Of a DNA stretch of 64,000 nucleotides, positions 7,459-62,095 are shown one piece after another. The notes under the pieces were generated by a model. That model saw only the letters and a list, made by a program, of their open reading frames with translations. It was not told where the DNA came from and made no database searches. Source of the DNA: a bacterium (GTDB lineage: Bacteria > Patescibacteriota > Minisyncoccia > Phycocordibacterales > UBA918); the NCBI GenBank assembly GCA_043719295.1, contig JAYSUD010000001.1:28943-92942 (forward strand), written 5' to 3'. Both the position numbers and the translations under genes were made by a program. The number at the start of each line of letters is the position of its first letter. The first letter of the stretch is position 1.

Positions 7459-7575
7459 GGCTAAAAATACCCCATTTACTTCGTTGCGTTTCAAAAAATT
7501 TTCCTCTACGTATGTTGAATACGTGTCGAAAAATTTTTTTCACGCGCCTCGTACCTGGGGCATTTTTAGCCTTTA
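7459..7575 (+). repeat. Family-2 structured intergenic element (copy R1): 15-bp outer inverted repeat GGCTAAAAATACCCC/GGGGCATTTTTAGCC around conserved core
   Basis: Core ...CTTCGTTGCG...AAATTTTCCTC...CGTA...CGCCTCGTA shared with copies at 38688-38806, 46897-47020, 61955-62095, 29730-29870(rc), ~9605-9720. Confidence 0.6.
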
Positions 7576-7680
7576 CCACTAGAGTTTGATTTAGAATTGC
7601 TAGGCGTTCATTGTTTATGTAAATCTTATAATGTGTACAGTAGTCATTACTGTTGTGTACATACGTTACAATGGTACGTA

Positions 7681-9600
7681 ATGAATAGGACCTACCTGTG
7701 TAGGAGTCTTGGTGTTATAGCACTTGCTGTTGTTTTAGTGCTCGGTTTTTTCGTCTTTCCGTTTTATAGCAACGCACTTAATATTCACTCATACAGTGAC
7801 ACTATTACCGATTCACGTCCCTTGGGTTATGCAAACCACACACTTGAATTTACGATCAAAACTGATATTGCGCCTTCTGGATTTATTGAAATTGAACCGC
7901 CCTCTGGATTTGAAATTACTTCTGCAGGTACTTTTGGTGAACGTAACGTTGAGGTGTATGTAAATGGGTTGTTGCGAACGGCAAGTTCAACAGGAGGTGC
8001 CACTGTTGATGAAGTAGTTATTACCCGTGGTTCACCTGGACTTATTCGCTATAGTTTAAACCCTACAGCAGGTATTGCAACAGATTCTCTAATTGAAGTA
8101 CGTATCGGTAATCATACTACTGGTGCATTGTATGACAGTGTTTCTTTTAGTAGTACTACAGGCACTACTACAACAATACGTGATACAGAGCCAATTAAAA
8201 ATAGTTCACAAATCGGCACACATAAAGTAGGTATTTCTTTTGGAGGAACTACAGCACCAGCGTATGCTGAGTTTAGTATTGCGGTTGTTAATGCGGTAGG
8301 TACAGGATTTGTTGATACAACTGAAACTGTTCCTCCATATCGTTTTAATGGTGCACCAACAGGTGAGATTGGAGGAACGACATTTAATGTTGAACTATCA
8401 CTTGAAACAGATGAGTTGGCTACGTGTAAGTTTTCGCAAGCATCAGGTACTCCGTATGTTTCAATGAACCGCACTTTTTCTCAAACGGGGCAAGTAGTCC
8501 ACTCGTCAATTGTGTCAGTTGCAACAGGGACACTCAATTCATACTTTGTTCGCTGTCTTGACGATGAAGGAAACTTCAACATTGACGATTACGTTATTTC
8601 TTTTATTTCGCAACCGCCACCATCAGGAAATCCTAACTCTGAAGGAGATGTAGATGGAGACGGAACTGGTACTGGAAATGACGGAACAGGAAGTGGTTCA
8701 GGCAGTGGCGGATCATCGGGAAATTCAAATGGTGGAGGTGGAGGAAGTGGTAGCAGTAGTGGTGGAGGTGGTGGTAGTAGTGGTGGAGGAAGTGGAGGTG
8801 ATAGTGGTACTGAAAATGCCAGTGAATCAGGTGGGGGACTTGAGTCAACTAACGCACCGTATCGAAGTGGTGACGCTGAAGTAGTAATTCGTGGATATGC
8901 ATTCCCTGGAAGTACTGTGTATGGACTTGTTGATGGGTTTCAAACAAAAAATGTAAAAGCAGGCAGTGATGGTAGTTACAGTATGACCATAGAGGAAATT
9001 GCACGTGGAGTGTATACCTTTGGTGTGTACGCAGTTGATGGTAGTGGTAAAAAATCAAGTACGTTTAGTACATCGTTTACCGTCACGGGAGGTAGAACTT
9101 CTAACCTTTCAAATATCAATATCATGCCGTCAATTACGGTAACTCCAAACCCTGTGACATCGGGGCAGTCACTTACTGTTAAAGGCGAATCAATTCCAAA
9201 CGCAGAAGTTACTGTTGAAAATCTAAATGATAAAAGTTCAGCGTCAAGAAAAAGTTTTACTGCAACTGCTAATGCATCAGGTGACTGGTCACTAACTATT
9301 GATACAACTGGCTTCACCAATGGTACGTATAAGATACGCGCAAAATCAAAGCAACTTGCAGGGTTGCTTTTAGAGACAAACTTTTCTGAGTATACATTTT
9401 ATGGAGTAGGTCAAAGTGCGGACGTCCCCTTAAGTGCTGACTTAAACACTGATGGAAAAGTAAACCTAACCGACTTCTCAATCTTACTCTTTTGGTGGGG
9501 AGGTGACGGGGGTAATTCAAACCCCCCTGCTGACATCAATAGAGACAAAAAAGTAAACCTAACCGACTTCTCAATCTTACTCTTCAACTGGACCGGTTAA
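7681..9600 (+). CDS. Secreted dockerin-containing surface protein (shared N-terminal module, Ig-like repeats, Gly/Ser-rich linker, C-terminal dockerin)
   Basis: TM/signal; N-terminal module homologous to 3084/40737 proteins (YSDTITDS...HTLEFTIKT...SGFEIT); (GGS)n linker; C-terminal double repeat DLNTDGKVNLTDFSILLFWWGG / DINRDKKVNLTDFSILLFNWTG matches the dockerin Ca-binding repeats. Track ORF begins 7597; ATG 7681 precedes the signal peptide. Confidence 0.65.
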   Translation: MNRTYLCRSLGVIALAVVLVLGFFVFPFYSNALNIHSYSDTITDSRPLGYANHTLEFTIKTDIAPSGFIEIEPPSGFEITSAGTFGERNVEVYVNGLLRTASSTGGATVDEVVITRGSPGLIRYSLNPTAGIATDSLIEVRIGNHTTGALYDSVSFSSTTGTTTTIRDTEPIKNSSQIGTHKVGISFGGTTAPAYAEFSIAVVNAVGTGFVDTTETVPPYRFNGAPTGEIGGTTFNVELSLETDELATCKFSQASGTPYVSMNRTFSQTGQVVHSSIVSVATGTLNSYFVRCLDDEGNFNIDDYVISFISQPPPSGNPNSEGDVDGDGTGTGNDGTGSGSGSGGSSGNSNGGGGGSGSSSGGGGGSSGGGSGGDSGTENASESGGGLESTNAPYRSGDAEVVIRGYAFPGSTVYGLVDGFQTKNVKAGSDGSYSMTIEEIARGVYTFGVYAVDGSGKKSSTFSTSFTVTGGRTSNLSNINIMPSITVTPNPVTSGQSLTVKGESIPNAEVTVENLNDKSSASRKSFTATANASGDWSLTIDTTGFTNGTYKIRAKSKQLAGLLLETNFSEYTFYGVGQSADVPLSADLNTDGKVNLTDFSILLFWWGGDGGNSNPPADINRDKKVNLTDFSILLFNWTG

Positions 9601-9639
9601 AATGAATTAAATCACTTCATTTGCTTTGTCAGCCTACGA

Positions 9640-9688
9640 AAAAAGACACTCGCTGGGTATTCACCCCACTCGTGTCTTTTTTCTTGTC
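9640..9688 (+). terminator. Probable rho-independent terminator (imperfect hairpin plus T-run)
   Basis: AAAAAAGACACTCGCTGGG...CCCCACTCGTGTCTTTTTTC downstream of the 9600 stop. Confidence 0.4.
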
Positions 9689-9811
9689 TTTCGCGCATCT
9701 AAAGCAATTTACTTCATTTTAATTATTTATAAAAAATTTTAGAAATATCTCGATGCGTAACTGTGCATAAATAACTTCAGTATAAGTAGATAGACACGAT
9801 ATAATTCTTGT

Positions 9812-11851: not shown

Positions 11852-12740
11852 AAATGAGCTACAGAGCGTAGCGACAATAGCGAATTTTGTTCCCAGTTTC
11901 TGCTGCTGACCGAGAGAAATACTTTAAGCCTCAGCTTTGCTGTGCTTAAAGTATTTCTCAGCAGAAACTGCTGGAACTCTCCAACGCTTGGTAATCTCCG
12001 CACCTTGGTATCAAGTATATCGAATTTCCCTTCTTACAGAAGCTGTCCACTCATTGGATACTTTATTTCGTTTCACTCATAAAGTACCTCAATGAGTCTT
12101 GCAAAAGTGTCACACACTTTCTCACCCAGTTTCTGCTGCTGACTCAGAAAAATATTGTACGCCTCAGCTTTAGCTGTGCGTACAATATTTTTCAGCAGAA
12201 ACTGCTGGAACTCTCCAACAGCGACATAACTCTGCATACAGCTATCTTCAACAAAAAACTTCTGGAGCTACCACTCGAACGTAATTCATACTCTATTCTC
12301 TTGTGTGCTACTGAAATCGAGAAAGATCGAGAGTGAGCTAAGCGTTAGAGACGTCCAGCAGTTTCCGCCGATCATAGTTTAGAACACGGCTAGCGCCGAG
12401 TTTCTAAACTATTCTCTAGGGCAAGGCGGAAACTGGGACGCACCGTACTCTGGAGTAGAAGTTTGCTATTGTCGTTTGCATACTACTGAAATCGAGAAAG
12501 ATCGAGAGTGAGCTTAGCGTTGGAGACGTCCAGCGATTTTTGCTGAACAATACTGTCTGCACAGCTAACGCTGAGGCAGACAGTATTGTTCTGGGTCAGT
12601 AGCAAAAATCGGGACGGAAGTTCGTCATTGTCGCTACAGACAGTGGAGTTAACTTAAGGTTCGAGACGTCGATACCAAGCCCAGGAAAGGGCAAGGTACT
12701 GACGGAAATTCGCCATTGTCGTCTGCGACTCTGTGGCTCA
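11852..12740. repeat. Cluster of ~5 family-1 long palindromic hairpin elements (100-190 bp each), both orientations
   Basis: Units built from GTAGCGACAATAGCGAATTTCCGTCCCAGTTTCCGCC ...variable inner stem... CTCAGCTAACGCTGAGG ...GGCGGAAACTGCTGGACGTCTCCAAC. Copies at ~11868-11987, 12125-12224, 12342-12480, 12517-12633, remnant 12660-12735. Confidence 0.8.
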
Positions 12741-12821: not shown

Positions 12822-12994
12822 AGGTTGTATGTAACTGGATGAGGTTTTTCTCAAAAAAAAGAGGTGAGAATACTATAATATCCATATTTAAAGCGCTATA
12901 TTTTACAGTGTGTGCTTTTGTTGCATCCTTCTCTACAAAACTAGTACCAAGAAGAATATTTGTCACATACAACTCAATATTGAGGAGATTAAAA

Positions 12995-15900
12995 ATGTCG
13001 ATTATCACTGCCTTGATACTTGTTGGTATTGGTGGTGTGGGTGTGCACTATACATTTTCAAATATCTATGCAAGTGATCATAAGGGTAGTATTAAAAGCA
13101 CACTTTTGGTGTATCCTTCCACTGTATTAGATTCAACATGGGGTGGAGTTACCGATGCGCTCACTTCAGACTTGGATGAAGAATCGATGTATCAAGATTT
13201 TTCTGCACGTAATTCAGCGTATATACTTTTGACTTCAGATGATTCTACTCAACCATCAAATGCAAATACACAATCGCAAAATCAAGTTGTCCCACAACCT
13301 GACGAAAAAACAGATGATGCACCTTTAATTCCTTCAGATGAAACTCAATCATCAGTACTTGAATCTGATGTTGTACCAGATGCTCCTGCTCTAGAAACTG
13401 AAACTGAAAGTGTGAGTGAACCAGTGACTTTAAAAAAGGCTACTGCTTCAGTTTTTACATTCCTTGAAACAGTAACTCGATTATTTCCTTTCGCACAAGA
13501 GACGGTACAAGAACCAGTAAGTGAACAAGAATCAGATTCTGAAGCATCGCTTGAGAATATACCCCAAGCTGAAGTTGTTGAAACTCTGAAGCCAACAGTT
13601 GTTGAAGTTCAAACTGTAGAGGAGCTGCCAGTACCTCTAGAAAATTCAACTGTTTCGACAACATCTCCATCAATAACTCTGCCAATGCTAGCGCCAGTTA
13701 CAAATGAAACGAAAGAAGTAAATGTACAACAGCAAAATTCAGTGCAACACTCGATCACTCTTTCTGATTTTAGTATTCCCGATTTAAAAACAGGTGAATT
13801 TATTACCAACGTTCAGTTGCGTATGTCACTTGGAGCTAAGTACAAAGATCAAGATAGTGAGGTCAAACCAGAAATATCAATTAGTTACAAAACACCATCA
13901 TCGACAAGTGATGTGGGTACCATTATTCTTGAAGATGAAGTTTCAAATGCACTCAATGGTGGATACTTTTTGTTTGCTCTTCCTGAAATTCTCACAGCTT
14001 CAGAGTTACGTGATATACACATTACCGTAACTTACAAAGGTGACATAAAAAAACTTGACGGAGTATTTCTTGATGCAGTATGGCTTGAGATAGATGTTGA
14101 GAGCATTGATAAAGAGGCTCTTGAAGAACAGGTATTAATTGATACACAAATAAAACAGGATGAACCTTTGCTCCACACAATGATTAGCGAACAGGTGGAT
14201 TTTACACGAAGCGAACTTCCAAAATTCAGTCTTAAGTACAATGCACAACGTAATATTGCTGTTCGGTTTTTCCGAGATTTATTTGGTCGTGATTTAGCAA
14301 CTATTGAAGATGTCTCATTTGTACACAGCGATGCTGGTGATATTGGCGCTACTCCTAAAATTGATATGACAAGTGAAGGCTTGCTCACTATTCAGTTTGA
14401 GGAAAATGACATGCGTCGCTTGAAGCCTGGGGAATACACAGTTGAACTTGAGGTAAACGAAGGGGGGGTATCATACACCGACTCATTCTCTTTCCAGTGG
14501 GGACTTTTGTCTTTGAACTCTAACAAGAGTGTCTATACACCAAATGAAACTGCAACAATATCCTTGGGTTCTTTGTCACTTAATGGAAACACTGTATGTG
14601 ATGCAAATTTGCGGTTGTATATTATTGATGGAGCTAATGGTGTTTCAAAATCTGAGGTTACTCCTTCTGGTTTGTGTAACGGAAATAATGTTATTGATAT
14701 TGCAGACTACAGTGCCACATTTATACCAACAACAGTTGGTATACATGAAATGTATCTTGAGCGAATTGATGTTGACGGTACCATTATGTCCCACACTTCC
14801 GATACCTTTGATGTTCGAGAAGTAGTACCACTATCAATAGAGAGAAATGGACCAAGTAGAATCTATCCGAGAGCAACCTATCCGATGGAGCTTATTGTAG
14901 ATGGAAAGTCACCATGGGTAGGAACACTTGTTGAAGTTGTTCCTTCTGATTTTGTAATTTCAGAAACTGATGCGATCGTTACCAAGAGAGGTGATTTCCA
15001 AGAACTTACATGGGATATCAGTGTTGATGTAGATGCGCCACAGACAGTCTCATATACATTTGATGCTCCAGATATTTCACCATTTTTGTATACGGTAGGA
15101 AAAGCAAAACTGGTGGGTATACAACCCGAACCTCAGGTTATTGATGATGCTCAAGTGGAGGTATTGGTACCAAGTGAAGTAGAGCCACTTTCTCCTGTTA
15201 CTGTCCCCGATGATACAGTAATTGATGTCATTGATGCTACAGATACTCCTATTGCTGTAGAGCCCATAGAATCAGTCCCCGAAACAATAGCTACTTCAAG
15301 CACAGAAAGTTCTCTTGAAGAAAAAGACATGCAACCTGTTGAAGAGGAAAAAACGTTGTTAGAAAAAATAATTGATTTTATTCCGTTTATTGGAAACGAT
15401 GAAACGCCCGCATCATCTGAGGTTGTTGAACCCGTATCGGAACTGCAAGTATCTACACCAGAACTTCAAGAGCCTACACCTATGGATCAGGTTGTTGCAT
15501 CAGAAATCGATGCGCTAACTCCTTCATCAGCAGTAGAAACAGAAGTCATAGCTTCTTCAACAATCTTAATGAGTGAAGCTGTTACTGTAGAAGCAATGGG
15601 GGGTGAGACAGTTTTTGAAGAGCATCGTCAATGGCAAATTGCGTCTGATGCAACGGGAAGTATGATTGCCTATTGGACTTCAGGTGCCTCCGTGCCATCA
15701 GGATGGACTTGCTTGTCATGTGGCTCTGGAACTTTTTACCAAAAGTTTGTACGTGGTGGAGCAACTTATAATCAAACAGGAGGCGCTGCTACGCATACGC
15801 ACAACGCAAGTGGTACCGTCAATGCTTCAGCTGTAGCTAACTCAGAAAACAGAGCAGGTGTTAACGTCGCACTTAATTCTCACTCACACACATACACACC

Positions 15901-18900
15901 GACAATTACTGCGTCTACAACATTACCTGCGTACAGAAATTTACGAGTAATTCAAAACAATAGTGCAGGGGAACCTGCAACAGTTCCGGCTGGAGTAGTG
16001 ATGCTGTTTGACGGTACCTTGCCTTCAGGTTGGGTACAATACGCAGCACTTACCAATCGCTATCCACGGGGAGAAAATACTATTGCAAGTTTAGGTACCT
16101 CAACGCACCGCCATACTATCTCCGGTTCAACCCTTGCAGCTTCAGGATCTACTGTTGACGGAAGAGCGGGAGGAACACAGGTTAGCGCATCAGCTAATAC
16201 TCATACGCATACCGTTAGTTCAAATACTGGTTTTGTTAATCATGAACCACCATACGTAAGTGTTATTTTTGCCACTTCAACAACCGCAACTAACACACCA
16301 ACGGGAGCTGTTACTATGTGGACTGATACACCGCCTGCACAATGGCAAAACGCTTCTGCGCAAGCAAGCGATCCATTTTTTGATAAGTTTATTAAGGGTT
16401 CAGCAACCTATGGAACAACTGGAGGAACTGAAACCCATACACACAGTAGTGTTAACGGTATAACAAGTAGTGCTGCAGTTGGAACACAAAATGCACGTAC
16501 GGGGGCAACAGGTGCAAACACTACGCACACTCATGCTGTTGATGTAAGTAGTTTTACAACAACAAATCATTTGCCACCATATATAACTGCAATTTTTGGT
16601 CGAAAGTATGGACCTGTACCCCTCTACACACAAAGTGGTTTTAAGTTTTATGTAAACACCAATGCATCAACACCAACTGACGCGTGGCCAGTTGGAGGGG
16701 ACGCACTATTGGAAAATGAGCCAATTGATGCTGCAAGTGTACCGGTTAAAAACGCTGACGTCGTACGTATCCGAACACAGCTTTCCGTTTCTAACTCTAC
16801 TTCTACAGCAGAATCTTTTAAGTTACAGTTTGCTTCAACAACAGCTTTGTGTACTGACGCTACAACATGGACTGATGTTGGAAATGCGACATCTTCAGCA
16901 CTATGGCGTGGGTACAACAATGCGGGAGTAAGTGATGGAGCGACGCTGTCATCTTCAACAATTTCGGGTACCGATGTATATGGTACCTATGAAGAAATAA
17001 ACCCTACGGTAACGATGCCAAATACTGTTGGTATTGCACGTCAAGGTGAGTGGGACTTTGTGGTGCAGCAAAATGCTGCACTTGAAGGAACTACGTATTG
17101 TTTCAGAATGGTTAAGAGCAACGGCACACCTCTATTTGCGTATGCGCAGTATCCAAGTGTTGTAACAAATGAGGCACCTAATGCACCTTCATTATCAAAA
17201 CTTTTTGACAACGAAAAAACAGCTACAACAACTCCTGATTTTGAGTTTTCGGCTTCTGATAATGAGTCAAATGATTTAACGTATCAAATTCAAATTGATG
17301 ATGACGCGTTGTTTGGATCGGTAACCGTTGATAGAAACAGTGTTACAAACTCTGCGCAATTTGAAAACCTCGCAACTCCAGCAGATAAAGATCCATTTAC
17401 ACAAGGTGAGCTAATTCGTTTTAATAACACCACAGGACTGACTAACGGCACAACCTACTATTGGCGTGTTCGTGCGAGCGACCCAACGGGTTCAAATACA
17501 CAAGGAAGTTGGTCGACGGTTCGAAGCTTCACTGTTGACACAGCACTAACTTTTTCTACGTGGTTTCAAACAACTGATGAGCAGTTTGATACCAACACAC
17601 TTAATGGTGTTGATGGAGTAACTGATCAAGCGCAACTGCGAGTTGGTTCGACCACGGGAACTATGTACAGTGATCCAGTTACTTTTAGTGAGGGACTTGT
17701 TGGTACTGCATGGGGCTCGTTTGCATTTAATGATACTGAAACAAGTAGCGATTTGAAATACACTATTCAATACAATAATGGCGGGACATGGACTGATATT
17801 CCTGATTCCGTTCTTTCTGGAAACGTTGCAGGTTTTGATACTTCACCAGTGTCGCTTCTTGGAGTTAATAAAACAGTGTATAGCGAGTTGCGTATTGAAG
17901 CGAATTTTGTAAACTCTGGTGCCTCACCGTCTTTACAGAACTGGTCTGTTACCTGGGCATACTTAATTGAAACACCAACAATCAATGCTCCTTTTGGTAA
18001 TGAAAAGGTAGCAACTACAACACCCACCTTTGAGTTCACTACAACTGATCCACAAAACGATAGTTTGCAATATCAAATACAATGGTCAACAACCTACGCG
18101 TTTACTGCTTCAACAACACGCAACTCAAATGTGAATGCTGGTTTTTCAAACGCGACAAACGGTGGGGATACTGACCCGTTTAATTCAGGTGATACTATTC
18201 GCTTTAAAATACAGGCGGGCGATGCATTAACAAATGGCACAACCTACTGGTGGCGTGTACGTGCACGTGACCCGTTAGGAAGTAATACCTATTCGTTCTT
18301 TGCTGACCCGAGGAGTCTTACTGTCGATACTACGGTAACAGTTTCAACATGGTTTCAAACTACACGATCACAATTTGGAAATAACACACTTTCAAATACG
18401 TATGCGCGGGGGACAGATGTGATTACTGTTGCAACAACTACACAGACGTCCCTTATTGCCTACGCAGAAGGAACAGTAACAACTCCACGCTATCGAACGT
18501 GGGATGGTTCAGTGTGGTCAATTGAAAGCTCAGCGCTTGATGTTGGTGCAACCATAAACTGGACGGTAACTAAAGCATCACCTACAGAAAGTGAATACAT
18601 TCTTGCAACCATGGGTACTGATGCAGATGTGAACGTACAAGTATTTAAAAATGGTGCATGGGGAAATTTACAAGAAGTAACTGCGTCGATTTCAAATACT
18701 ACTATGCGTGGATTTGATGTGGGATATGAGCAGTCTTCAGGAGATGCAATGGTCGTAACCTGTGATGGGGATGCAAATCCGACCTATTGGATGTGGAATG
18801 GAAGTGCCTGGTCGAATGAGGGTGCCATTGGTTTGTCAGCTGGAAATACCTGTGGTTGGATTAAACTTATTTCTGATCCAACGTCAGATGAAATTATTGC

Positions 18901-29729: not shown

Positions 29730-29870
29730 GATGATATGATAAGGACTTACGCAAACGAGTGCAATTCGAGGCGTACAAGTAAAATGTGACGAGGTGTACG
29801 GTATAGTACATAGAGGAATATTTTGCGCAGTACAACGAAGAAGTGTGCCGTTTGCGGAAGTCCTAAAAAA
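29730..29870 (-). repeat. Family-2 element, reverse orientation (copy R6)
   Basis: Reverse complement reads ...CGCAAAATATTCCTCTATGTACTATACCGTACACCTCGTCACATTTTACTTGTACGCCTCGAATTGCAC, near-identical to the core of the 46897-47020 copy. Confidence 0.55.
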
Positions 29871-33326: not shown

Positions 33327-33343
33327 ATTCCTTTTTTCACTTC

Positions 33344-37547: not shown

Positions 37548-38684
37548 ATGTATGCAACATTGTACGCTTTCAACAAAATTGTAGTTGCATTGCTCATAAT
37601 TCTTTTTCTCGTACAGCCACTTAATTCATTTGCTCAGATAAGCCCAGGGTACGTTTCAACTACTACTTTTACCTTAAGTATTTGCGGAAATGTGCTAGTG
37701 GATGACGGTGAGGAGTGTGATGTGCTTGGAGAAACTGGTGGATACAGCACTACTATCATAGGGCGTCAGTGTGATGTTGATTGTCAGTATGGACCCTACT
37801 GTGGTGATGCAATTTTACAGACTATTTTTGGTGAGGAATGTGACGACGGAAACAATGCTGATGCCGATTTTTGTAGTGCTGAATGTACCATTGAACCAGC
37901 AGGAAGTGGCGGTGGAGGCTCTTCAGGAGGTGGAAGTGGGGGAAGTGGAGGAAGTACTGAAGATCTAGGAGATACAAAAGTGAGTATTACCGGAAGGGGG
38001 TTTCCAAGTCAAACAGTACACGTTCTTTTGGATTCAAGAGAAATAAGTACGGTTCGTGCAGATAGCACAGGTAAATTTACCTTTGCAACAAATGCATCTC
38101 CTGGGACTGTCTCTATGGGTTTTTGGTCACTTGACCTCAATAGAATTAAATCAATTACCTACAATACAACGTTCGATGTAACGCAAGGAGCAATTACAAA
38201 CGTTAATAGTGTTTTGATTCCTCCAACACTTGCAGTTGATAAAGCAGTATTGAATTCTGGCGACACTATAAACTTCAGTGGTCAGACAATACCAAACACA
38301 AAAGTTGAAGTGCATATTAATAACAGTGAAAAAGTACTCACGACAACTTCAGGTGCCAACGGTGTTTGGACAGTACCGTATGTCACAACTGGTTTAAGCA
38401 ACAAAGAGCATACCGCACGCGCACGTTTTATTTTGGGTGCTGGTACACTAACCACACAAAGTAGTTTTAGTACCACGCTGCAGCTTGCTGTGGGGGTTGC
38501 AGGTCGTTCCTCAACACCATCAGACTTGAATCGAGATGGAAACATAAATCTTACTGACTTTTCTATTTTAATTTTCTGGTGGGGAAAAGACGGCGGTAAC
38601 TCAGATCCAAAAGCCGACATCAACGGAAATGGAAATGTAGGCCTAGAAGACTTTTCGATCTTACTATTCAACTGGACGGGCTAA
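37548..38684 (+). CDS. Secreted protein with Myxococcus-type cysteine-rich repeats, Gly/Ser linker, Ig-like region and C-terminal dockerin
   Basis: CGNVLVDDGEECDVLGE...CGDAILQTIFGEECDDGNNADADFCSAECTIE fits the C-x-DG-x-EECDDGN-x-DGDGCS-x-C repeat; C-terminus DLNRDGNINLTDFSILIFWWGK / DINGNGNVGLEDFSILLFNWTG dockerin repeats. Confidence 0.65.
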   Translation: MYATLYAFNKIVVALLIILFLVQPLNSFAQISPGYVSTTTFTLSICGNVLVDDGEECDVLGETGGYSTTIIGRQCDVDCQYGPYCGDAILQTIFGEECDDGNNADADFCSAECTIEPAGSGGGGSSGGGSGGSGGSTEDLGDTKVSITGRGFPSQTVHVLLDSREISTVRADSTGKFTFATNASPGTVSMGFWSLDLNRIKSITYNTTFDVTQGAITNVNSVLIPPTLAVDKAVLNSGDTINFSGQTIPNTKVEVHINNSEKVLTTTSGANGVWTVPYVTTGLSNKEHTARARFILGAGTLTTQSSFSTTLQLAVGVAGRSSTPSDLNRDGNINLTDFSILIFWWGKDGGNSDPKADINGNGNVGLEDFSILLFNWTG

Positions 38685-38687
38685 AGC

Positions 38688-38806
38688 GCAAAAAACAAAC
38701 TCATCTACTTCGTTGCGATGCAGAAATTTTTCTTCAATGTACTCAATGTACACCTCAGAAAAACTTCTTTCCGCGCCTCGTATCTAAGTCTGTTTTTTGT
38801 GCTTTA
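38688..38806 (+). repeat. Family-2 element (copy R2)
   Basis: Outer inverted repeat CTAAAGCGCAAAAAACAAACTCA/TAAGTCTGTTTTTTGTGCTTTAG around core ACTTCGTTGCGATGCAGAAATTTTTCTTC...CGCGCCTCGTA. Confidence 0.6.
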
Positions 38807-38825
38807 GTGAAATGAGCCACAGAGC

Positions 38826-42029: not shown

Positions 42030-42600
42030 AAATGAGCTACAGAGTGAAAAAGTCTGGGAGACTTTTGCAAGAGGTTGACTACTATTTTGAATAAAATAGT
42101 GACAACCTGAACAGCTTCTGTAAGAAGTAGCGACAATAGCGAATTTCCGTCCCAGTTTCCGCCTTGCCCGAGAGTATAGTTTAGAACCTCGGCGTTAGCC
42201 GTGTTCTAAACTATGATCGGCGGAAACTGCTGGACGTCTCCAAAACTAAAACTAACTCTGTCTACTGTAGCGACTATTCTGAATTTCCGTCAGTGATTTT
42301 TATTCCTAATAAAATCATCGACGTCTCTAAAACTACAATATACTTTGTCAGCAGTAGCGACAATAGCGAATTTCCGCCCCAGTTTCTTTCCTACAGAAAC
42401 GGTTCACTTTGTCACTTTTTCTTCAATATATTAAAGAAAAAGTAGTCAAAGTCTTGCGAAGTGACGTTTAGTCACTTCTCACCTTGCCCGAGAGTATAGT
42501 TTAGAACCTCGGCGCTAGCCGTGTTCTAAACTGTGATCGGCGGAAACTGCTGGACGTCCCGAACGTTTAGTTAAATTAGCTCATCTCAAACAAAGTACTA
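42030..42600. repeat. Cluster of family-1 elements (42128-42245; short copy 42268-42340; 42352-42565 carrying a nested extra hairpin) preceded by family-3 hairpin (42040-42075)
   Basis: GTAGCGACAATAGCGAATTTCCGTCCCAGTTTCCGCCTTGCCCGAGAGTATAGTTTAGAACCTCGGCGTTAGCCGTGTTCTAAACTATGATCGGCGGAAACTGCTGGACGTCTCCAA; the third copy has a ~80-bp insertion forming its own stem (GTCACTTTTTCTTCAATATATTAAAGAAAAAGTAGTCAAAG...). Confidence 0.75.
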
Positions 42601-46127: not shown

Positions 46128-46894
46128 CCCTATTTAAAAAAATATTATATTTTTTTTGTGCAAGCTGTCGTCCTAACCGAAGCAGCACCGTTCGTTACGC
46201 CTTTCCACTTGTTTTTACCCTCGCTGCATTCTTAGGCGCTGCAGTTATCGTAACTGATAATAAATCCTTTATTCATCTTGAATCTTCTGTTGCTTCAGTT
46301 AATGCAGGAGAATCATTTCAGATAGAAATCTATGTTTCTGCACATGTTCCGGTTAATGCTGTAGACATCACGCTTGAGTTTCCAAAAAACCAGATTAAAG
46401 TTACAAGTATTGATAAAGGGGAATCAGTGTTGACCTTATGGACACAAGAACCAAGGGTTGAAAATAATAAAGTGTATTTAACGGGAGGTACGTTTAGAAG
46501 AGGTTTTATTGGTGACCACCTCATCGCAACTATCAATGCCCGTGCAATTCAATCAGGTTTAGCAAAATTCAGTGTAGATAATGTTTCACTTCTTGCGGGC
46601 GACGGTTCAGGTTCAAAAGTTTCTGTAACTAAAAATGATAAGGAAAGTGCAACACTCTACATAACAAATGCAGATGGTACTAAAACACAGGGAACTGAGG
46701 CTGTGGGGGTACAGGGAGTAACTTCGGTTGTGATCATAACCGACATTGATGGCGATGGACAAGTTACATTAGCCGATATAAGTCGTTTTATGTCAGCATG
46801 GAATACAAAAACAATCACCTATGACTTTAACGGTGATGGTGCTATGTCGTTTAGAGATTTTGGGATAATACTCGCCGATTCCTTCCTCCGCTAA
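46124..46894 (+). CDS. Adaptor-like protein with cohesin-like domain plus C-terminal dockerin
   Basis: N-terminal TM/signal; ...VNAGESFQIEIYVSAHVPVNAVDITLEFPKNQIKVTSIDKGESVLTLWTQEP...FSVDNVSLLAGDGSGSKVSV cohesin-like; C-terminus DIDGDGQVTLADISRFMSAW...DFNGDGAMSFRDFGIILADSF dockerin repeats. Confidence 0.55.
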   Translation: MTLFKKILYFFCASCRPNRSSTVRYAFPLVFTLAAFLGAAVIVTDNKSFIHLESSVASVNAGESFQIEIYVSAHVPVNAVDITLEFPKNQIKVTSIDKGESVLTLWTQEPRVENNKVYLTGGTFRRGFIGDHLIATINARAIQSGLAKFSVDNVSLLAGDGSGSKVSVTKNDKESATLYITNADGTKTQGTEAVGVQGVTSVVIITDIDGDGQVTLADISRFMSAWNTKTITYDFNGDGAMSFRDFGIILADSFLR

Positions 46895-46896
46895 AC

Positions 46897-47020
46897 AAAA
46901 GCCTAAAACTGGCACATTTCTGCGTTGCGCTACGCAAAATGTTCCTCACCGTACTATACGTACGACTCGTCACACTTTGCTTGCACGCCTTGAACTGCAC
47001 TCAGTTTTAGGCTTCTGCAC
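46897..47020 (+). repeat. Family-2 element (copy R3)
   Basis: Outer inverted repeat AGCCTAAAACTGGCAC / GCACTCAGTTTTAGGCT around core CTGCGTTGCGCTACGCAAAATGTTCCTCACCGTACTATACGTACGACTCGTCAC. Confidence 0.6.
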
Positions 47021-47167
47021 TGAGTCGTAATTTGTTTCGAAGTTTACAGATTTCGAATGTTGATAAGTTAAAACGGGGGATTGGCTAAAAAGGTACAATA
47101 GGTATGTGATGGGGATAGTATACAAATACTTGATACCGTATCCTGCTTAGAACACTCTGCTTTTTAC

Positions 47168-51800: not shown

Positions 51801-54800
51801 TCCGTATGGAAGTATCAAATGAAGGTACGATTACTTCACCGAATACAGCGCTCCGTCTGGAGTTTGGTACAAAAATTAGTACCTGTTCAGCTGTAGCTTC
51901 GTGGACAGACGTTGGTGCGACGTTAGGTGCCTTTGATATGTTTGCTTCAGCAAACCTAACAGAAGGAGGTAACACAACAAATATTGCTACAGGTATCGGT
52001 GGAGTTACAGACGATAATACTACGTTTAAAACTCCAAACGCCTCAGTTAAAGACACAAGTTCGCAAATAGCAACAACTACTTTTTTATCGACGAACTTTA
52101 TTGAAACGGAGTTTTCAGTTAAGCAAACAGCAAATGCTGCGTACGATACAACGTACTGTTTTAGACTTTCAAACGCGGGGACAGCATTGCAGGCCTACAC
52201 AGCCTATCCGGAGCTTACAACCTCTCCAGAACGTGATTTTGAAATACAGCGAGGTGTCGCTAACTTTAGTGCAACGTCAGTTACCTTAACTGCAGGAGTT
52301 GACTATATCGCGCCAAGTGCTTCAACTAGTGCGTTTGTTCGTATTACAAACTCACATTATACAGGCGCAGGTGATAGTTCAGCAGGTGGAAACTCTAATG
52401 CTGATGACGTAACTGCCTACATTTCAAACCCTTCTAACCTTGTTACTTCGTTTACCATAACAAGACCCGCAACAGCCATAGCTACTACTACACGTGTTGC
52501 CTGGGAAATTGTTGAATTTATTGGAACACCAGGCTCTGATAATGAAATGAAGGTACGTGGCAATGGAACAGTGACCTATACCACTACATCAATTACCGCA
52601 ACAGGAACTGCAGTAACGGGTATTGTTAATGATGCAGACGTCGTTGTGTTTATAACTGGACAAGATAATCCCGATATACTTACTACAGACTACAACACCG
52701 GACAGTCAGTATCACAGTGGCTTTCGGCTTCTGACCAGCCGTCATTTAGACGTGGAGAGGCTTCGGGGGATGCAAGTCGCATTAGTTATGCAGTTGTAGA
52801 ATTTACCGGAGTAAATTGGAAAGTACAACGAGCTTCACACACGTATACAGCAGCAGGTACAACGGAAACAGAGTCTATTACTGCAGTAAATAGTTTATCA
52901 AGAACTTTTATTCATTCTCAGAAACGCATGGGTACGGCGCTTCAAGGTGAAGATGAGTTTGGGCATGAGGTATGGCTTTCAAGTATTGGTGCTGTTTCTT
53001 TTTTCTTACAAGGGGGAGCAACATCACCAGCACTTCAAACTTCAGTTGCGTGGATTATTGAAAATACACAAACAAGCAATGGCGCAATGGTGGTGACACA
53101 AAAAAATAACTTTACAAACGGTGGAGCGGAGCCGCTGACGTTAAGTATGCCAATAGATATTACGCTTGACGATCTCACCAATACATCAATATTTGCAACA
53201 AACCGCGCTGTAGGTACAGGAACGTTGTTCCCTCGCCCAATTGCTGGATTTAGAATTGCATCAACAACACATTTTGAAATTTGGAGAAGTGATACGGGAA
53301 CTCAGATTGATTATCGTGTAGAGATTGTACAGTGGCCAACAGCTGGTTTGGCACTTCATCAAAACGACTACCGTTTTTATGTTGATAATAATGCACTTGA
53401 CCCAACTGACCCGTGGCCTTTAGGTGTTATTGATCTTGGTGAAAACACGGTATTAACAGGAAGTGACGAACCGCTAGGTGATGCAGAGCATATTCGTATT
53501 CGTATGTCGGCTACGGTCTTTAATGCAACATTGCCTGAAGATACTGTAAGTAACAAGTTACAATTTGGGGAGCGTATAACAACCTGTACTGCAATAGGTG
53601 AAATTAATTGGATTGATATTGGCAATGCTACATCAAGTGCAATTTGGCGAGGGTACAATGCTTCTGGTGTTGTAGATGGTACAACATTGTCAACAGATCC
53701 TCCTACAGGAGGTGAACTCAATATTACTGCGTCCGATATTGGGGGAACGTATGAGGAAACAAACAACTCTGCTGTAAACCCGTATACAGTAGAAGAAGGT
53801 GAAGACATTGAGTATGACTGGCACATTCAGCAAAATGGTGCAGATGCTGAAACTTTCTATTGTTTTAGAATGGTTGATAGTAGTGGTTCAGTATTTGGTG
53901 CATATGATGACTATCCGCAGTTACGGACCTCTTCATTTACCGCAAAAACACAAAACTGGCGTTGGTATAGTGATGCAAATAACGAAACCCCAACCCAAGC
54001 ATTAGCGATTGAAAATTCGGCACCTATTGATATTGGTAATGGAAGTACGACAAAATTGCGAGTAACGGTTAAAGAAACTGAAAACATCGCACGTGATGAT
54101 GTTCGTTTTAAATTGCAGTATTCAGAGTATGCCGATTTTTCAAACAATGTGTACGACGTTCTTGCAACAAGTACGTGTATTGCTTCGTCAACATGGTGTT
54201 ACTTTAATGGAGGAGGAAGTGATAATGCGGTTATAAGTACAAAGGTACTTTCTGATGCAGACGCGTGTGTTGCGGGAGTTGGTGATGGTTGTGGTACACA
54301 CAATGAAAGTTCACAGTTACTAACGGGATTTAGACACGAAAATAGCGCTGCTACTGAATACGAATTTACGCTTGAGGCAAAAGCTCTGCGAGCAAATGCG
54401 GTGTATTATTTTAGGTTGTATGACATAACCCAAGACATACCTGTTCTCATAAACACAGGTGAGTCGTATCCTTCACTTGTTGCTGTTGGTGCATCATTGG
54501 TTTTTGACGTTGCAGGGATTACTTCGGGAACCGTTATTGACTCATTTACCGTTGACGTAACTTCAACACCAACTGCGATTCCGTTTGGTACAGTTCCGTT
54601 TAATACTGATTTTGAGGCTGCATACAGACTTAATATAAACACAAATGCAACCCAAGGATATCAAGTGTTAATGTACGCTGATCAACAATTACTTAATTCA
54701 TATGGCACACAAATTCAACCAATAACTGCGACAAATGCAACTCCTGCGGGTTGGAATGATCTTACATTCGGTTGTTTACCCTCTTCTTTTGGTTGTTTTG

Positions 54801-55024
54801 GGTATCACGCAGAAGATGATTCATTAAGTGGAATAAATGGACCACGATTTGGAGCTGATGATACATTTGCACAACTTTCCACAACTACGCCACATGAAGT
54901 TATGTATAGCTCTATTCCTGTTAATGATACTCATGATATTCTATACAGATTAAAGGTGACCGAACAGCAGGCAGCGGGGGAGTATGAAACAACCATAACG
55001 TATATAGCTGTACCTGTGCATTAA
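48833..55024 (+). CDS. Giant (2063 aa) cell-surface protein with internal tandem duplications and WxL-like C-terminal domain
   Basis: N-terminal TM/signal; two ~250-aa tandem repeats (TTLPYNCASVSYGGGESQFG...YCMRLTN vs TTAPYDCASESYGGSEAQFG...YCFRLSN); further (Y/F)R(F/W)Y.D...YCFRMV modules shared with the 5576-aa giant; C-terminus ...AIPFGTV...NTNATQGYQV...GEYETTITYIAVPVH. Confidence 0.8.
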   Translation: MNRRLYNTGSFLVAYKFLSILLIVSFFFGNLGALFNFNTAEKAEAAQVTIDSAADVTGASHIHGASQSVFISDQVGYKFYRDAPGYCVYKKTSDGGSTWSSTTTVDAQIDCVGISVWYDRWTPGDTGTNIHIVTIDTGNDDPWYNRLDTNGDTRLLGSAPVSAILGPPAQGANTFTALSNYPAITKGTDGTVYIAVSDNVDSYIVECSITCQTAANWTETGPTGTLPATPDFNLLVPLASGNIMLINRLIASEDIRSKIWNNTAWSGTWTVIEGNGTDNTTYPVGMAATVSSTTPGNVYLAYVASNATLGTDDQVRTHRYTGGAWATTTSVLTGTTRGLTNVAIALDASNDDVYVAYTGRTTATASSTGNVYWKKSLDDMATWSVESPVINTTSNDMYGVDLNISSNERIQATWFDNARDDIYTDTIADVFSGIHATTTGSHTGSATASTSNFYVGGAFVLSQNYKTQDITDITITENGTIDGDANISNIKLFYEMDTTLPYNCASVSYGGGESQFGSTDTSGFSGPNGVSTFSGTTVSVGTTSTMCGYVVLDILNSTPNGSTIDLSINNPATDVTVTNGTAGPPTAQTMTGATTVTNDNLTQIRYHWRNDDNTEALATSKTGGTEGISFSGYQRTPVRLRMEVSNEGGASSLATQYRLEYSLATTSCNLATGWTDVGASNGDFDMSPSANLTDGNDTTNIAVAQGGVTNENTTFLTPNGGVKDTSSQTGNITLSTTQYVELEYSIIASTTAADGNTYCMRLTNAGTPLDTYSVYPQVTIQADVNLTTRLTQTANLNVPSTNQNVGGQFVLTDATGSHTITSIKLTENGTVNAQTGLDNIRLKYDFDTTAPYDCASESYGGSEAQFGATSTASFSGTNGTTTFSGSLGVTTTQTVCMYTVLDVTTSASNGQTVEVEISNATTDATLTSGSSAPSSARALPGTTTLVGAVLTQSRYHFRADNGTEAAATSLTGGNENTALTNVSQNTPVRIRMEVSNEGTITSPNTALRLEFGTKISTCSAVASWTDVGATLGAFDMFASANLTEGGNTTNIATGIGGVTDDNTTFKTPNASVKDTSSQIATTTFLSTNFIETEFSVKQTANAAYDTTYCFRLSNAGTALQAYTAYPELTTSPERDFEIQRGVANFSATSVTLTAGVDYIAPSASTSAFVRITNSHYTGAGDSSAGGNSNADDVTAYISNPSNLVTSFTITRPATAIATTTRVAWEIVEFIGTPGSDNEMKVRGNGTVTYTTTSITATGTAVTGIVNDADVVVFITGQDNPDILTTDYNTGQSVSQWLSASDQPSFRRGEASGDASRISYAVVEFTGVNWKVQRASHTYTAAGTTETESITAVNSLSRTFIHSQKRMGTALQGEDEFGHEVWLSSIGAVSFFLQGGATSPALQTSVAWIIENTQTSNGAMVVTQKNNFTNGGAEPLTLSMPIDITLDDLTNTSIFATNRAVGTGTLFPRPIAGFRIASTTHFEIWRSDTGTQIDYRVEIVQWPTAGLALHQNDYRFYVDNNALDPTDPWPLGVIDLGENTVLTGSDEPLGDAEHIRIRMSATVFNATLPEDTVSNKLQFGERITTCTAIGEINWIDIGNATSSAIWRGYNASGVVDGTTLSTDPPTGGELNITASDIGGTYEETNNSAVNPYTVEEGEDIEYDWHIQQNGADAETFYCFRMVDSSGSVFGAYDDYPQLRTSSFTAKTQNWRWYSDANNETPTQALAIENSAPIDIGNGSTTKLRVTVKETENIARDDVRFKLQYSEYADFSNNVYDVLATSTCIASSTWCYFNGGGSDNAVISTKVLSDADACVAGVGDGCGTHNESSQLLTGFRHENSAATEYEFTLEAKALRANAVYYFRLYDITQDIPVLINTGESYPSLVAVGASLVFDVAGITSGTVIDSFTVDVTSTPTAIPFGTVPFNTDFEAAYRLNINTNATQGYQVLMYADQQLLNSYGTQIQPITATNATPAGWNDLTFGCLPSSFGCFGYHAEDDSLSGINGPRFGADDTFAQLSTTTPHEVMYSSIPVNDTHDILYRLKVTEQQAAGEYETTITYIAVPVH

Positions 55025-60277: not shown

Positions 60278-61348
60278 ATGAAAAAACAAAATTTTTTCTA
60301 TGCGTTAGTAAGTGTGTGCTGTATTTTTGTCGTTCTCTTTCCTCTGTTTCTTCATAATGGACATATTGAACAAGTGGAAGGAGAAGAAAGTTTGGCTCAT
60401 AGCAAATCACTTGTCCAAAAGTTGCTAGCAACTGATACAAAAGACACTAAAACCGGAATCGCGTTTACAGGTGACATAATGCTTGCTCGCAATGTTGAAA
60501 ACCTTATGACCGCATATGGGTCTTCGTACCCCTTGTTAGGACTTCAAAAACACAGTGACGATATGTATCTTGTTGGAAATTTTGAATCTGCAATTCCTGT
60601 AACGCATGCGCACACTCCAAGTATGGGATTTTCATTTTCAACAAAAAAAGAAAATCTTGAAGGATTGAAGCAATATGGATTTACACACATGGGAGTTGCA
60701 AACAATCATTCATATGATTTCGGACAAGATGACTTCTTGCATACAAAAAAAATACTTGAAGAGTCGGAATTGCATCCCTTTGGAGATCAGCGAAACTTAG
60801 CTTCAAGTACAGTACAGTTTGTAGAGGTTGAGGGAGAGACCGTTGCACTTGTGGGGGTATTTGCCGTTGATGTTGGACCTACTAAAGCTGATATTTCAAA
60901 ACTTTTTAAAAAAATCGAGACTAAAAGTACACTTCAAGTAGCATACGTACACTTTGGTACAGAATATAAGGCAACTCATTCGTATTTCCAAGAAAATCTC
61001 GCACACACACTTATTGACGCAGGGGCTGATGTGGTTATAGGGCACCATCCTCACGTTGTTCAAGATATTGAAATATACAAAAATAAAGTAATTTTCTATT
61101 CACTTGGTAACTTTATTTTTGATCAATACTTTAGTAAAGAAGTGCAAGAAGGCCTTGTTGTTGAAATGCGTGTAGAGCAAGATGATCTTGTGTTTACCCT
61201 TAAACCGGTTACGAGTATCGGTTCAAGAAGTATGCCCCGTTTTATGGCGCCGTACGAAAGAGACACATTTCTTTCTGAACTTGCAAAGAAAAGTGATACA
61301 GGGCTTGGTGTAATGATAGAAGAGGGAGTTCTACGTACAATACAGTAA
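60278..61348 (+). CDS. capA: CapA/PGA_cap family metallophosphatase-like protein (poly-gamma-glutamate capsule synthesis CapA-like)
   Basis: N-terminal TM; motifs FTGDIMLAR, GNFESAI, VANNHSYDFG, HFGTEY, GHHPHVVQ, YSLGNFIFDQ, characteristic of the CapA family. Confidence 0.8.
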   Translation: MKKQNFFYALVSVCCIFVVLFPLFLHNGHIEQVEGEESLAHSKSLVQKLLATDTKDTKTGIAFTGDIMLARNVENLMTAYGSSYPLLGLQKHSDDMYLVGNFESAIPVTHAHTPSMGFSFSTKKENLEGLKQYGFTHMGVANNHSYDFGQDDFLHTKKILEESELHPFGDQRNLASSTVQFVEVEGETVALVGVFAVDVGPTKADISKLFKKIETKSTLQVAYVHFGTEYKATHSYFQENLAHTLIDAGADVVIGHHPHVVQDIEIYKNKVIFYSLGNFIFDQYFSKEVQEGLVVEMRVEQDDLVFTLKPVTSIGSRSMPRFMAPYERDTFLSELAKKSDTGLGVMIEEGVLRTIQ

Positions 61349-61399
61349 CGCATATACTTGCATTTAGCCGATACATGCGTATTATTTTGGTATTAAACT

Positions 61400-61942
61400 T
61401 TGAGTATGATAAACAAATTTGAGATAATTGGCGTGTTCGCATGTGTAGGGACAATGGCGTTGGCACTTTTTCTTCTGCAACACAACACAAATGGCAGTAT
61501 TCTTTCTTCAGTAACAGCTGATAGCCAAATGGCAACCGTAGTTGCTGTAGATGCCAATACAAAAAATACCGACAATTTAGAAAAAACTATTAAAAATTCA
61601 ATTGATATGAAAGGTAATGTAGACGAACTTATACGTGACGATGTGGTTATTGGAAAAGGAAGCGAAGTGAAAGAAGGTGACACGGTATCAGTACACTACA
61701 TAGGAACATTACAAGACGGACAAGAGTTTGATAACTCAAACAAACGAGGTGCACCGTTTGAATTTACCGTAGGTGAAGGAAGAGTGATTAAAGGATGGGA
61801 TCAAGGAGTAATAGGAATGAAAGAAGGAGGTACACGGATTTTAGTTATACCTGCAAGTTTGGCGTATGGAGCAAATGCAATTGGACCTATCCCCGCACAG
61901 TCTACGTTAGTATTTTCTATAGAGTTACTTGTAATAAAATAA
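61400..61942 (+). CDS. FKBP-type peptidyl-prolyl cis-trans isomerase, membrane anchored
   Basis: N-terminal TM; VKEGDTVSVHYIGTLQDGQEFDNSNKRGAPFEFTVGEGRVIKGWDQGVIGMKEGGTRILVIPASLAYG classic FKBP domain. Confidence 0.85.
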   Translation: MSMINKFEIIGVFACVGTMALALFLLQHNTNGSILSSVTADSQMATVVAVDANTKNTDNLEKTIKNSIDMKGNVDELIRDDVVIGKGSEVKEGDTVSVHYIGTLQDGQEFDNSNKRGAPFEFTVGEGRVIKGWDQGVIGMKEGGTRILVIPASLAYGANAIGPIPAQSTLVFSIELLVIK

Positions 61943-61954
61943 CGCTCGGCTAGA

Positions 61955-62095
61955 TATCACCTCGTCTGCTTTGTCGCACTGCAGAAATTTTCCTCATCGT
62001 ACTACAACGTACGCCTCGTAAAATTGCTTTGTGCTTCGCGCACCCAAGGCAATCTCTAACCAAGCTACGTTGCTCTGTAATTTTGTAGACTTCAA
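61955..62095 (+). repeat. Family-2 element (copy R4)
   Basis: Core CACCTCGTCTGCTTTGTCGCACTGCAGAAATTTTCCTCATCGTACTACAACGTACGCCTCGTAAAATTGCTTTGTGCTTCGCGCACC. Confidence 0.5.

Follow-up and report, generated by a model that had tools for sequence, protein, structure and literature searches.

A family of ~130-bp imperfect palindromes of Patescibacteria, probably mobile or formerly mobile, in a niche just after stop codons

Introduction

The genomes of Patescibacteria are about 1 Mb long and are thought to be highly streamlined. Despite this presumed streamlining, a 64-kb stretch of one of them (GenBank contig JAYSUD010000001.1, positions 28,943 to 92,942; this whole stretch is called here the window) gives over about 1.2% of its length to six copies of a ~130-bp palindromic repeat, hereafter family 2 (copies c1 to c6, numbered by position), plus more to a second repeat family. 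What is family 2, and why do its copies lie just after stop codons? An earlier reading, made from the letters of the window alone (the sequence-only reading), had seen in it a conserved core enclosed by closing stems proper to each copy, and implied a discrete structured RNA.

The explanation that best accounts for the data, to which we give a probability of roughly 60%, is that the imperfect palindromes of family 2 form a new interspersed repeat family of Patescibacteria, mobile now or in the past. It would be similar in kind to enterobacterial repetitive intergenic consensus (ERIC) sequences, to REPINs, which are built from repetitive extragenic palindromic (REP) sequences, and to miniature inverted-repeat transposable elements (MITEs), and would occupy a post-stop niche. 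On this best reading, family 2 is not a gene-specific regulatory RNA and, judging from the genomes compared, would be spread lineage-wide in Patescibacteria (Paceibacteria/Kaiserbacteria) as a counterpart of the small repeats of other bacteria. No prior description was found in the literature on repeats or structured RNAs of the candidate phyla radiation (CPR)/Patescibacteria or on REPINs and REP-associated tyrosine transposases (RAYTs), which is no proof that the family is undescribed.

Six copies in the window

Family 2 was modelled as R1, a calibrated covariance model of 131 positions and 37 pairs. An unfiltered cmsearch of the window returns exactly six copies (83–128 bits), all other matches being generic hairpins below 20 bits, and an nhmmer profile of the core also finds these six only (E 1e-15 to 1e-21). 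The core pattern matches four times in the window against 0.00 expected from shuffles. Both the profile and the covariance-model searches agree with the sequence-only reading, which had listed six copies at about these places, and the six can be aligned with one another.

Copy c1 (7450..7581, + strand; 111.5 bits; fold −44.9 kcal/mol, z −8.1) begins 5 nt before the TGA stop of an open reading frame (ORF) with an FGE-sulfatase domain (6636–7457). Its closing stem, GGCTAAAAATACCCC/GGGGCATTTTTAGCC, an inverted repeat of 85% over 27 nt, resembles an intrinsic terminator (A-tract, CCCC/GGGG, T-tract). Copy c2 (9595..9725, + strand; 90.3 bits; fold z −5.1; inverted repeats I7 and I11) is the most divergent one and lies after the TAA stop of a dockerin protein gene (7597–9600), upstream of HSP20. 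Its apical helix has GGGT/ACCC in place of GTAC/GTAC and its helix 4 GACAC/GUGUC in place of UUUU/AAAA, both replacements being compensatory. Copy c3 (29737..29868, − strand; 127.7 bits) is inverted with respect to both flanking genes, which are on the + strand; it lies 11 nt past the stop of a 5628-aa ORF and ends 3 nt before an ATG at 29872. Its outer stem, TAGGACTTCCGCAAACGG/CGTTTGCGTAAGTCC, is the cross-genome consensus, and the copy is 88% identical over its whole length to L025:702-832, on a contig with unrelated flanks (labels of this type designate loci from outside the window).

Copy c4 (38679..38810, + strand; 108.5 bits; inverted repeat of 82% over 28 nt) holds the TAA stop of a dockerin ORF (37548–38684) within the base of its outer stem, and its 3' end is adjoined by the second repeat family (family 1), whose match begins at 38810. 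The model of c5 (46892..47022, + strand; 120.6 bits; fold z −4.9) begins on the TAA stop of ORF 46124–46894, which has a borderline dockerin/EF-hand match in Pfam. Finally, c6 (61940..62070, + strand; 83.4 bits; fold z only −1.35), whose outer stem is decayed, lies between the genes of an FKBP isomerase (61400–61942) and of tRNA-guanine transglycosylase (TGT; 62122–63369).

No reading frame is conserved on either strand: most copies have stops in all six frames and no ATG-started ORF is shared. This rules out a peptide gene, as the sequence-only reading had already argued. Rfam 15 gives no match at gathering score over the whole window; in E-value mode on the copies, the sole overlap is a spurious match to a miRNA precursor (21.7 vs 100 bits). 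The window has no tRNA or tmRNA gene.

One hairpin maintained by compensatory changes

Each copy is an imperfect palindrome that folds into a single rod-like hairpin of ~125–130 nt with five helices. From base to apex, these are a basal stem of ~14 bp, a short helix (CUU/GAA) flanked by GGCACA/UGCACUC, a variable helix of 4 bp, an A/U helix (AAAAUAUU/AAUAUUUU) and an apical helix of 5 bp (CGUAC/GUACG) with a variable loop of 4–6 nt. Fold energies of the window copies range from −23 to −45 kcal/mol, with z from −4 to −8 except for c6. The most conserved part consists of the unpaired strands (CUUCGUUG, UCCUCAY, RNCUCGU and CGCCUCGAA), several positions being identical in 33–34 of the 34 copies used for covariation, i.e. 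the six of the window and 28 from genomes and metagenomes of Patescibacteria. These strands are 67% pyrimidine, the pyrimidine-rich side being the strand that usually matches the upstream gene, and the GC skew of the element sense strand is therefore −0.2, against +0.04 to +0.10 for the surrounding + strand.

Covariation strongly supports the structure that the sequence-only reading had proposed. Over the 34 copies, 89.7% of the pair cells form standard pairs, against 32–50% when partners are slid by 1–3 columns; both sides have changed at 34 of the 37 pairs; and covariation scores 0.586, whereas shuffles give 0.166 and none of 500 reaches the observed value. The hairpin is thus under real constraint or continually regenerated, and the whole of it is maintained intact by compensatory mutation. 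The core (columns 28–116) has a mean pairwise identity of 67%, against 40–44% for the outer arms, and R1 scores are polar, the sense strand giving 83–128 bits and the antisense strand 12–35 bits.

The closing stems require a revision of the earlier picture, in which three copies carried perfect stems that differed completely. The three stems are 85%, 82% and 94% complementary over 27, 28 and 16 nt, so not perfect, and all six copies have one (79% over 28 nt in c2, 94% over 16 nt in c3, weak in c6). Nor do they differ completely: the 40–44% identity of the outer arms compares with a null of 28% (0.28, from within-sequence shuffles), the arms of five of the six window copies find a better-than-chance best match among arms from other genomes, c4 alone showing no residual similarity, and a loose consensus, TAGGACYTnCnnAAAYGG ... 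CTCRTTTnnGnnAGTCCTA, runs across genomes. What looked copy-specific is thus the helix that evolves fastest in one homologous hairpin: the basal stem belongs to the element and stays paired by compensatory change.

The same data bear on the idea, implicit in the sequence-only reading if taken to the letter, that the element is only an ~85-bp core, inserted in the loops of unrelated pre-existing hairpins such as terminators, the closing stems being host sequence. The c1 stem (AAAAATACCCC/GGGGCATTTTT) is closely like a canonical terminator at ~4175–4205 (AAAAATCCCC/GGGGATTTTT), the outer arms of c4 have no significant similarity to others, and nested insertion in a hairpin loop does occur, a family-1 module being found in the apical loop of a family-2 copy (L030:9082-9294). 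However, besides the shared consensus and the significant similarity in five of six window copies, the same outer stem is common to at least 10 copies from different genomes, the paralogues L009a and L012a are alike over the entire hairpin plus ~15 nt beyond, and no terminator-like stem is seen in the c1 orthologue of L038. The core-only element is therefore improbable as a general explanation; for individual copies, such as c1 with its terminator-like stem, an origin by insertion into a terminator loop is conceivable.

Strand asymmetry

The two strands of the hairpin are not equivalent. Only 22 of 1238 pair cells are G.U, fewer than A.C (52) or pyrimidine-pyrimidine mismatches (56). The complementary strand is the better fold in 32 of 33 copies (−51.0 vs −37.0 kcal/mol for the sense strand with RNA parameters, and −25.3 vs −20.7 kcal/mol with DNA parameters), the reason being that C-G, tandem G.A/A.G and G.U pairs form there in place of the invariant "loops". 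The weaker-folding, pyrimidine-looped strand is the mRNA sense in three quarters of the copies. Rare G.U and a better fold of the complementary strand are unlike the usual signature of selection on a sense RNA. Three readings fit this asymmetry: the target of selection is an antisense transcript or a DNA hairpin; the mRNA deliberately keeps its loops open; or orientation is filtered against the very stable form in transcripts or in the lagging-strand template. The counts of G.U versus A.C were dropped as a guide to the functional RNA strand, their answer being opposite to gene orientation.

The niche after stop codons

The sequence-only reading had placed most copies after stop codons, and rightly so: in five window copies the upstream stop falls 0–5 nt into the model, c3 being the inverted one. 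It had also put three of them after dockerin genes, which holds for c2 and c4, the match upstream of c5 being borderline (22.3 bits vs a cut-off of 22.9). More largely, about 20 copies have the stop codon of a substantial co-oriented ORF at model positions 1–8, and this stop, often the consensus TAG/TAA, supplies the initial pairs of the basal stem. Some seven copies are in inverted orientation (c3, L015, L017, L023, L026/L020, L038:4199), usually also near a stop codon, which gives a ratio of co-oriented to inverted copies of roughly 3:1. The upstream genes are unrelated, including gyrA (twice), recA, rpoC, ssb, an rpe-like gene (ribulose-phosphate epimerase), an ABC substrate-binding protein gene, FKBP and dockerin/surface protein genes. 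A family-2 copy and the tRNA gene at L020:1153-1225 are on one strand and ~70 nt apart, so copies are not confined to the 3' ends of protein-coding genes.

Are the copies terminators? A scan with a terminator consensus flags c1 only, at background frequency, and ordinary A-tract/GC-stem/T-tract terminators occur elsewhere in the window, which speaks against family 2 being the canonical terminator. A U3-6 run follows helix 2, but it lies inside the larger hairpin, paired with an A-tract; the full rod itself has no U-tract behind it. The L009 copy is followed at ~35 nt by a canonical terminator and therefore stands inside the gyrA 3' untranslated region (UTR). Family 2 shares with bidirectional intrinsic terminators its place just after stops, the A-tract/U-tract pair around a hairpin and its exchange with canonical terminators at some sites. 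It differs from intrinsic terminators in that its hairpin is ~90 nt, A/U-rich and with large loops, that conserved pairing extends ~12 bp beyond the U-run and that the complete hairpin is followed by no U-tract, a canonical terminator following one copy.

Imperfect palindromes of attC-like length, directly after stop codons and with an orientation bias, also recall integron attC recombination sites placed after gene cassettes. Nevertheless, the copies have no R''/R' boxes (RYYYAAC...GTTRRRY) and end in TAGGAC...GTCCTA, they are conserved in the centre and variable at the ends, whereas attC shows the opposite, and they follow core housekeeping genes (gyrA, recA, rpoC, ssb). Furthermore, copies in the window are spaced 2–20 kb apart over multi-gene blocks and no integrase was found among the 20 window ORFs scanned. 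End motifs, conserved centre and housekeeping context together rule out an integron, leaving this the least probable of all the explanations weighed here.

In the RNA, the copies would travel with the upstream gene, as part of its 3' UTR or of the intercistronic stretch, and would fold there as a stable rod, which may serve as a 3'-end protecting or terminator-like hairpin; the post-stop site would then be a tolerated niche.

Distribution and turnover

Outside the window, one pattern scan was made of species-representative genomes, and metagenomes and viral contigs were scanned as well. The genome scan gave 14 loci, 13 of them with true family-2 copies, which bear the names Patescibacteria, Paceibacteria, Kaiserbacteria and once Saccharibacteria, two titles being uninformative; L014, from Verrucomicrobiales, is a chance match to the pattern. 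The metagenome scan gave 15 loci, 14 with true copies, L016 being another chance match. The viral contigs scanned gave no family-2 match, which speaks against a phage origin. The sequence-only reading would have been weakened if no copies existed elsewhere, and a genome-wide search was its own suggestion: copies turned up in many Patescibacteria.

Five orthologous sites could be compared by synteny. The FKBP-TGT site is filled in the window (c6), in L031 (FKBP 92% identical in amino acids) and in L032 (81%), and not filled in L033/L034 (FKBP 81%), which have a plain terminator, nor in L035 (66%), where stop and start codons overlap without any spacer. The c6 orthologues of L031 and L032 (76 and 74 bits) share only 68% identity with c6 and carry compensatory changes in three helices. 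The site after the LLALFA* gene is filled in L030 and L038; the window has only 17 nt there and is empty. The site after the UmuC-like gene (umuC) is filled, in inverted orientation, in L038 only; the window is empty and its right flank aligns. L030 is filled after gene 3084-4151, where the window and L038 have a canonical terminator. Finally, the c1 and c2 sites, filled in the window, are empty in the syntenic complete genome CP064968.1; the c2 site is also filled in L030, by a different subtype, and the c1 site of L038 holds a degenerate copy.

Other palindromes were seen at these sites. L030:5098-5405, orthologous to the c1 site, has four different perfect palindromes in a row (10–13-bp stems) and no family-2 copy. 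At L033:2125-2267 (and in L034), the c6-orthologous site, the plain terminator is AAAATGAGTGAC-ttacgat-GTCACTCATTTTACTTG; its 3'-terminal part (ATTTTACTTG) agrees with helix 4 of family 2 on the 3' side, and a further element with long inverted repeats, GTCTTTGCGAGC...GCTCGCAAAGAC, comes after it.

Duplication is also visible. The paralogues L009:4858 and L012:1226, from one contig and different loci, are 92% identical and differ by a compensatory change of GGAC/GTCC to AGAC/GTCT. As expected of a repeat, contigs end inside or beside copies (L001, L027, L032). Filled and empty sites, paralogues and contig breaks together are the dynamics of a dispersed, duplicating repeat and not of a gene-specific regulator; presence or absence at orthologous sites and near-identical paralogues are what a mobile repeat should show. 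Of the discrete ~100-nt RNA with a free closing stem implied by the sequence-only reading, the structure stands; the discreteness is disfavoured, the copies being dispersed after unrelated genes in both orientations, with site turnover and paralogues, and the stem being part of the element.

Mobile repeat or host function

Several observations weigh against a mobile or formerly mobile repeat. Filled and empty sites were compared between fairly diverged genomes, and the LLALFA* spacers (203 vs 17 nt) do not give a clean 131-nt difference. Orthologous copies persist (c6, L031, L032), subtypes are common to different genomes and loops are near-invariant across bacterial families, all of which a host function under purifying selection would explain too. 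In this material we found neither a transposition event nor a target-site duplication nor a cognate autonomous element. Many copies read TA-TAGGAC...GTCCTA-TA; this terminal TA cannot be read as a target-site duplication because it is part of the palindrome, and the filled/empty pairs are too diverged to define junctions. REPINs have conserved ends (the REPs) and a variable spacer, and DDE-type MITEs have conserved termini; in family 2, the centre is the most conserved part and the termini the least. Moreover, the repeat that flanks the RAYT-like gene of the window, described below, is GTGGGGTCTCGTAAACCCCAC and not family 2.

The main competing explanation is an immobile, host-functional, cis-acting 3'-UTR RNA: the rod, with its CCUC/CUCG loops, would bind a protein or an RNA, or would be an elaborated terminator or 3'-end stabiliser. 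Selection would keep it after many genes, the apparent turnover being the ordinary gain and loss of regulatory elements. The strong covariation suits this explanation, as do the tight coupling to stop codons with a 3:1 bias to the mRNA sense, the persistence of orthologous copies with compensatory change in situ (c6, L031 and L032; the gyrA site in L009 and L019), the alternation of canonical terminators with copies at the same sites, and the A-tract/U-tract pair around a G-C-closed inner hairpin, with U5-6 runs in c1, c2 and c4. However, the full hairpin has no trailing U-tract, and the 12 bp conserved outside the internal U-run would be needless for a terminator ending there; canonical terminators exist in the same genome, one of them just downstream of a copy. 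G.U is rarer than A.C and the sense RNA folds less well in 32 of 33 copies, about a quarter of the copies are inverted, paralogues are near-identical and the upstream genes unrelated. A host-functional RNA is thus possible rather than probable; it stays viable in view of loops that hardly vary between genera and of the persistence of some orthologous copies.

A candidate mobiliser and its own repeat

If family 2 is a mobile repeat, its propagation would need recognition of the hairpin and its conserved loops, most plausibly as single-stranded DNA (ssDNA), by an enzyme acting in trans. The only mobiliser candidate seen is a single-copy gene (678–1346, − strand) for a putative RAYT-like Y1/HUH protein of 222 aa with the motifs HYHLLL (HUH) and YIHLNP; it is to be taken as a lead. 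The protein scores 24.1 bits with Pfam Y1_Tnp (cut-off 23) and 31.6 bits with NCBIfam REP_Tyr_transpos, below the cut-off of 80. Its locus is conserved, the order being S24 (LexA/UmuD-like) peptidase, Y1 and UmuC-like polymerase in the window and in L036, L037, L038 and L039, a set that includes a complete Kaiserbacteria genome. More than 4000 homologues exist, mostly labelled Patescibacteria.

This gene has its own repeat: four copies of a 21–25-nt palindrome, GTGGGGTCTCGTAAACCCCAC (651, 1186, 1413, 1455rc), flank it, spanning 648–673, 1186–1206 and 1410–1478 and including a perfect inverted pair with 26-nt arms and a 17-nt spacer; one copy is within the annotated 5' part of the Y1 ORF. The stems of these palindromes vary by lineage and the loop TCGTAA is kept. 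GTGGGGTCTCGTAAACCCCAC was found nowhere else in the window, and no family-2 copy lies beside the Y1 gene in the window or in L036 to L039.

Could family 2 be a dispersed client of this transposase, i.e. a REPIN-like element with inverted architecture? In ssDNA, the apical hairpin and the conserved loop containing TCG would be what the enzyme recognises, and it would copy the element to new sites exposed as single strands. A single-copy gene at a conserved locus, with so many Patescibacteria homologues, would suit this role, as would the dominance of Watson-Crick pairs, the scarcity of G.T and the better fold of one strand under DNA parameters, which suit an ssDNA substrate; compensatory changes also occur in REPINs (PMC3116915). 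The conserved loop TCGTAA of the Y1 repeat recalls the 3' apical loop of family 2, CTCGTAA or CTCGTCA, but over a few bases only: the shared motif is 3–7 nt long and was spotted post hoc. Linking family 2 to the gene by motifs was given up, CTCGTAA and ACCCCAC (shared by c2) being too short to count and the flanking repeats belonging to another family. Furthermore, 20 kb around the Y1 gene of CP064968.1 hold no family-2 copy, the protein falls below the RAYT cut-off and the REPIN pattern of conserved ends and variable centre is the reverse of that of family 2. A client of this enzyme is thus an unlikely, though tentatively arguable, identity for family 2.

The much better fold of the strand opposite to the usual mRNA sense leaves room for readings in which family 2 is more than selfish DNA: a functional module across Patescibacteria, with one particular strand being read, either as an ssDNA substrate of Y1/HUH or as a stop-anchored 3'-UTR RNA. 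We regard them as doubtful. If the first were true, a domesticated enzyme between LexA/UmuD-like and UmuC-like genes would point to a REPIN-type system linked to damage, whose architecture reverses that of known REPINs. If the second were true, three exposed CCUC/CUCG loops, anti-Shine-Dalgarno-like, would bind a protein or a purine-rich RNA, and the terminating ribosome, by melting the basal stem, would be coupled to the fate of the mRNA.

Other repeats of the region and implications

The second modular repeat family, family 1, probably the "family 1" of the earlier reader, fills large intergenic regions of the window (11852–12600, 31351–31793, 33204–33343, 38810–39080, 40230–40440 and 42044–42574). 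Its units begin with AAATGAGCnACAGAGCGTAGCGACAAT..., have conserved segments in both orientations and gave no match to Rfam at gathering score. Short perfect hairpins with arms of 15–16 nt and loops of 13–18 nt occur in these regions (11914–11959, 12545–12591, 31413–31460, 31685–31731, 38873–38919 and 40169–40213); their arms differ in each copy and begin with GAAC or GAGA. A palindrome resembling these hairpins, GAACCTAGGACAT...ATGTCCTAGGTTC, flanks the Y1 gene of L035. The family-1 module of L030 mentioned above, ~84 nt long, sits exactly in the apical loop of the family-2 copy after gene 3084-4151. In L010:5452-5558 and L011:112-151, the 3' third of a family-2 copy is replaced by sequence matching window 12025–12125. 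Hairpin loops may be insertion targets of the other repeat.

The region is rich in surface proteins with dockerin, cohesin, Big and fn3 domains. Window positions 12839–29725 are a single ORF of 5628 aa, and a second giant ORF (2063 aa) occupies 48833–55024. Nearly all genes are on the + strand, with positive GC skew throughout.

With model R1, annotators could mask these repeats, account for contig breaks in metagenome-assembled genomes (MAGs) and avoid miscalling novel riboswitches or small RNAs. Family 2 is also a natural experiment on the compensatory evolution of a long hairpin, in which orthologous and paralogous copies can be paired, and a strain-typing marker for uncultured lineages. 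Together with a RAYT-like gene beside UmuD/UmuC-like genes, it offers a testable entry to the persistence of small repeats in minimal genomes.

Comparison with known systems

REPINs are REP doublets forming hairpins, with compensatory changes (PMC3116915). Family 2 is likewise an extragenic, multi-copy long hairpin with compensatory changes that combines vertical persistence and turnover, and the same genomes encode a RAYT-like Y1 protein in single copy; its gene is, however, flanked by another REP pair and not by the dispersed repeat. Like Correia elements and other MITEs, family 2 is ~100–150 bp long, intergenic, foldable as a hairpin RNA, presumably co-transcribed and present or absent between strains. 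The ends of the Neisseria Correia element read TA|TAG..., as those of family 2 do. Unlike MITEs, family 2 has neither conserved terminal inverted repeats nor a demonstrable target-site duplication or a related autonomous insertion sequence (IS), and no IS with ends matching it was seen in the window or in the loci.

ERICs, also called intergenic repeat units (IRUs), are imperfect palindromes of ~127 bp whose central part is better conserved; they lie outside genes, in transcribed intergenic or 3' regions and in either orientation. They are common to several genera, are present or absent between relatives and fold as a long RNA or DNA hairpin. Family 2, ~130 bp long, palindromic, extragenic, in either orientation, cross-genus and with a conserved centre, resembles them, in kind only. 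A relationship to ERIC in sequence is not expected, and none was seen, no comparison aimed at it having been made. It differs in belonging to another phylum (Patescibacteria), in being stop-codon-anchored, in its invariant pyrimidine-rich loops and clear polarity and in its density, six copies per 64 kb in a genome of the ~1-Mb class. Globally, an architecture that combines a conserved centre, fast-evolving ends, stop anchoring and strong polarity fails the tests for REPINs and for DDE-type MITEs and is closest to that of ERIC-like repeats.

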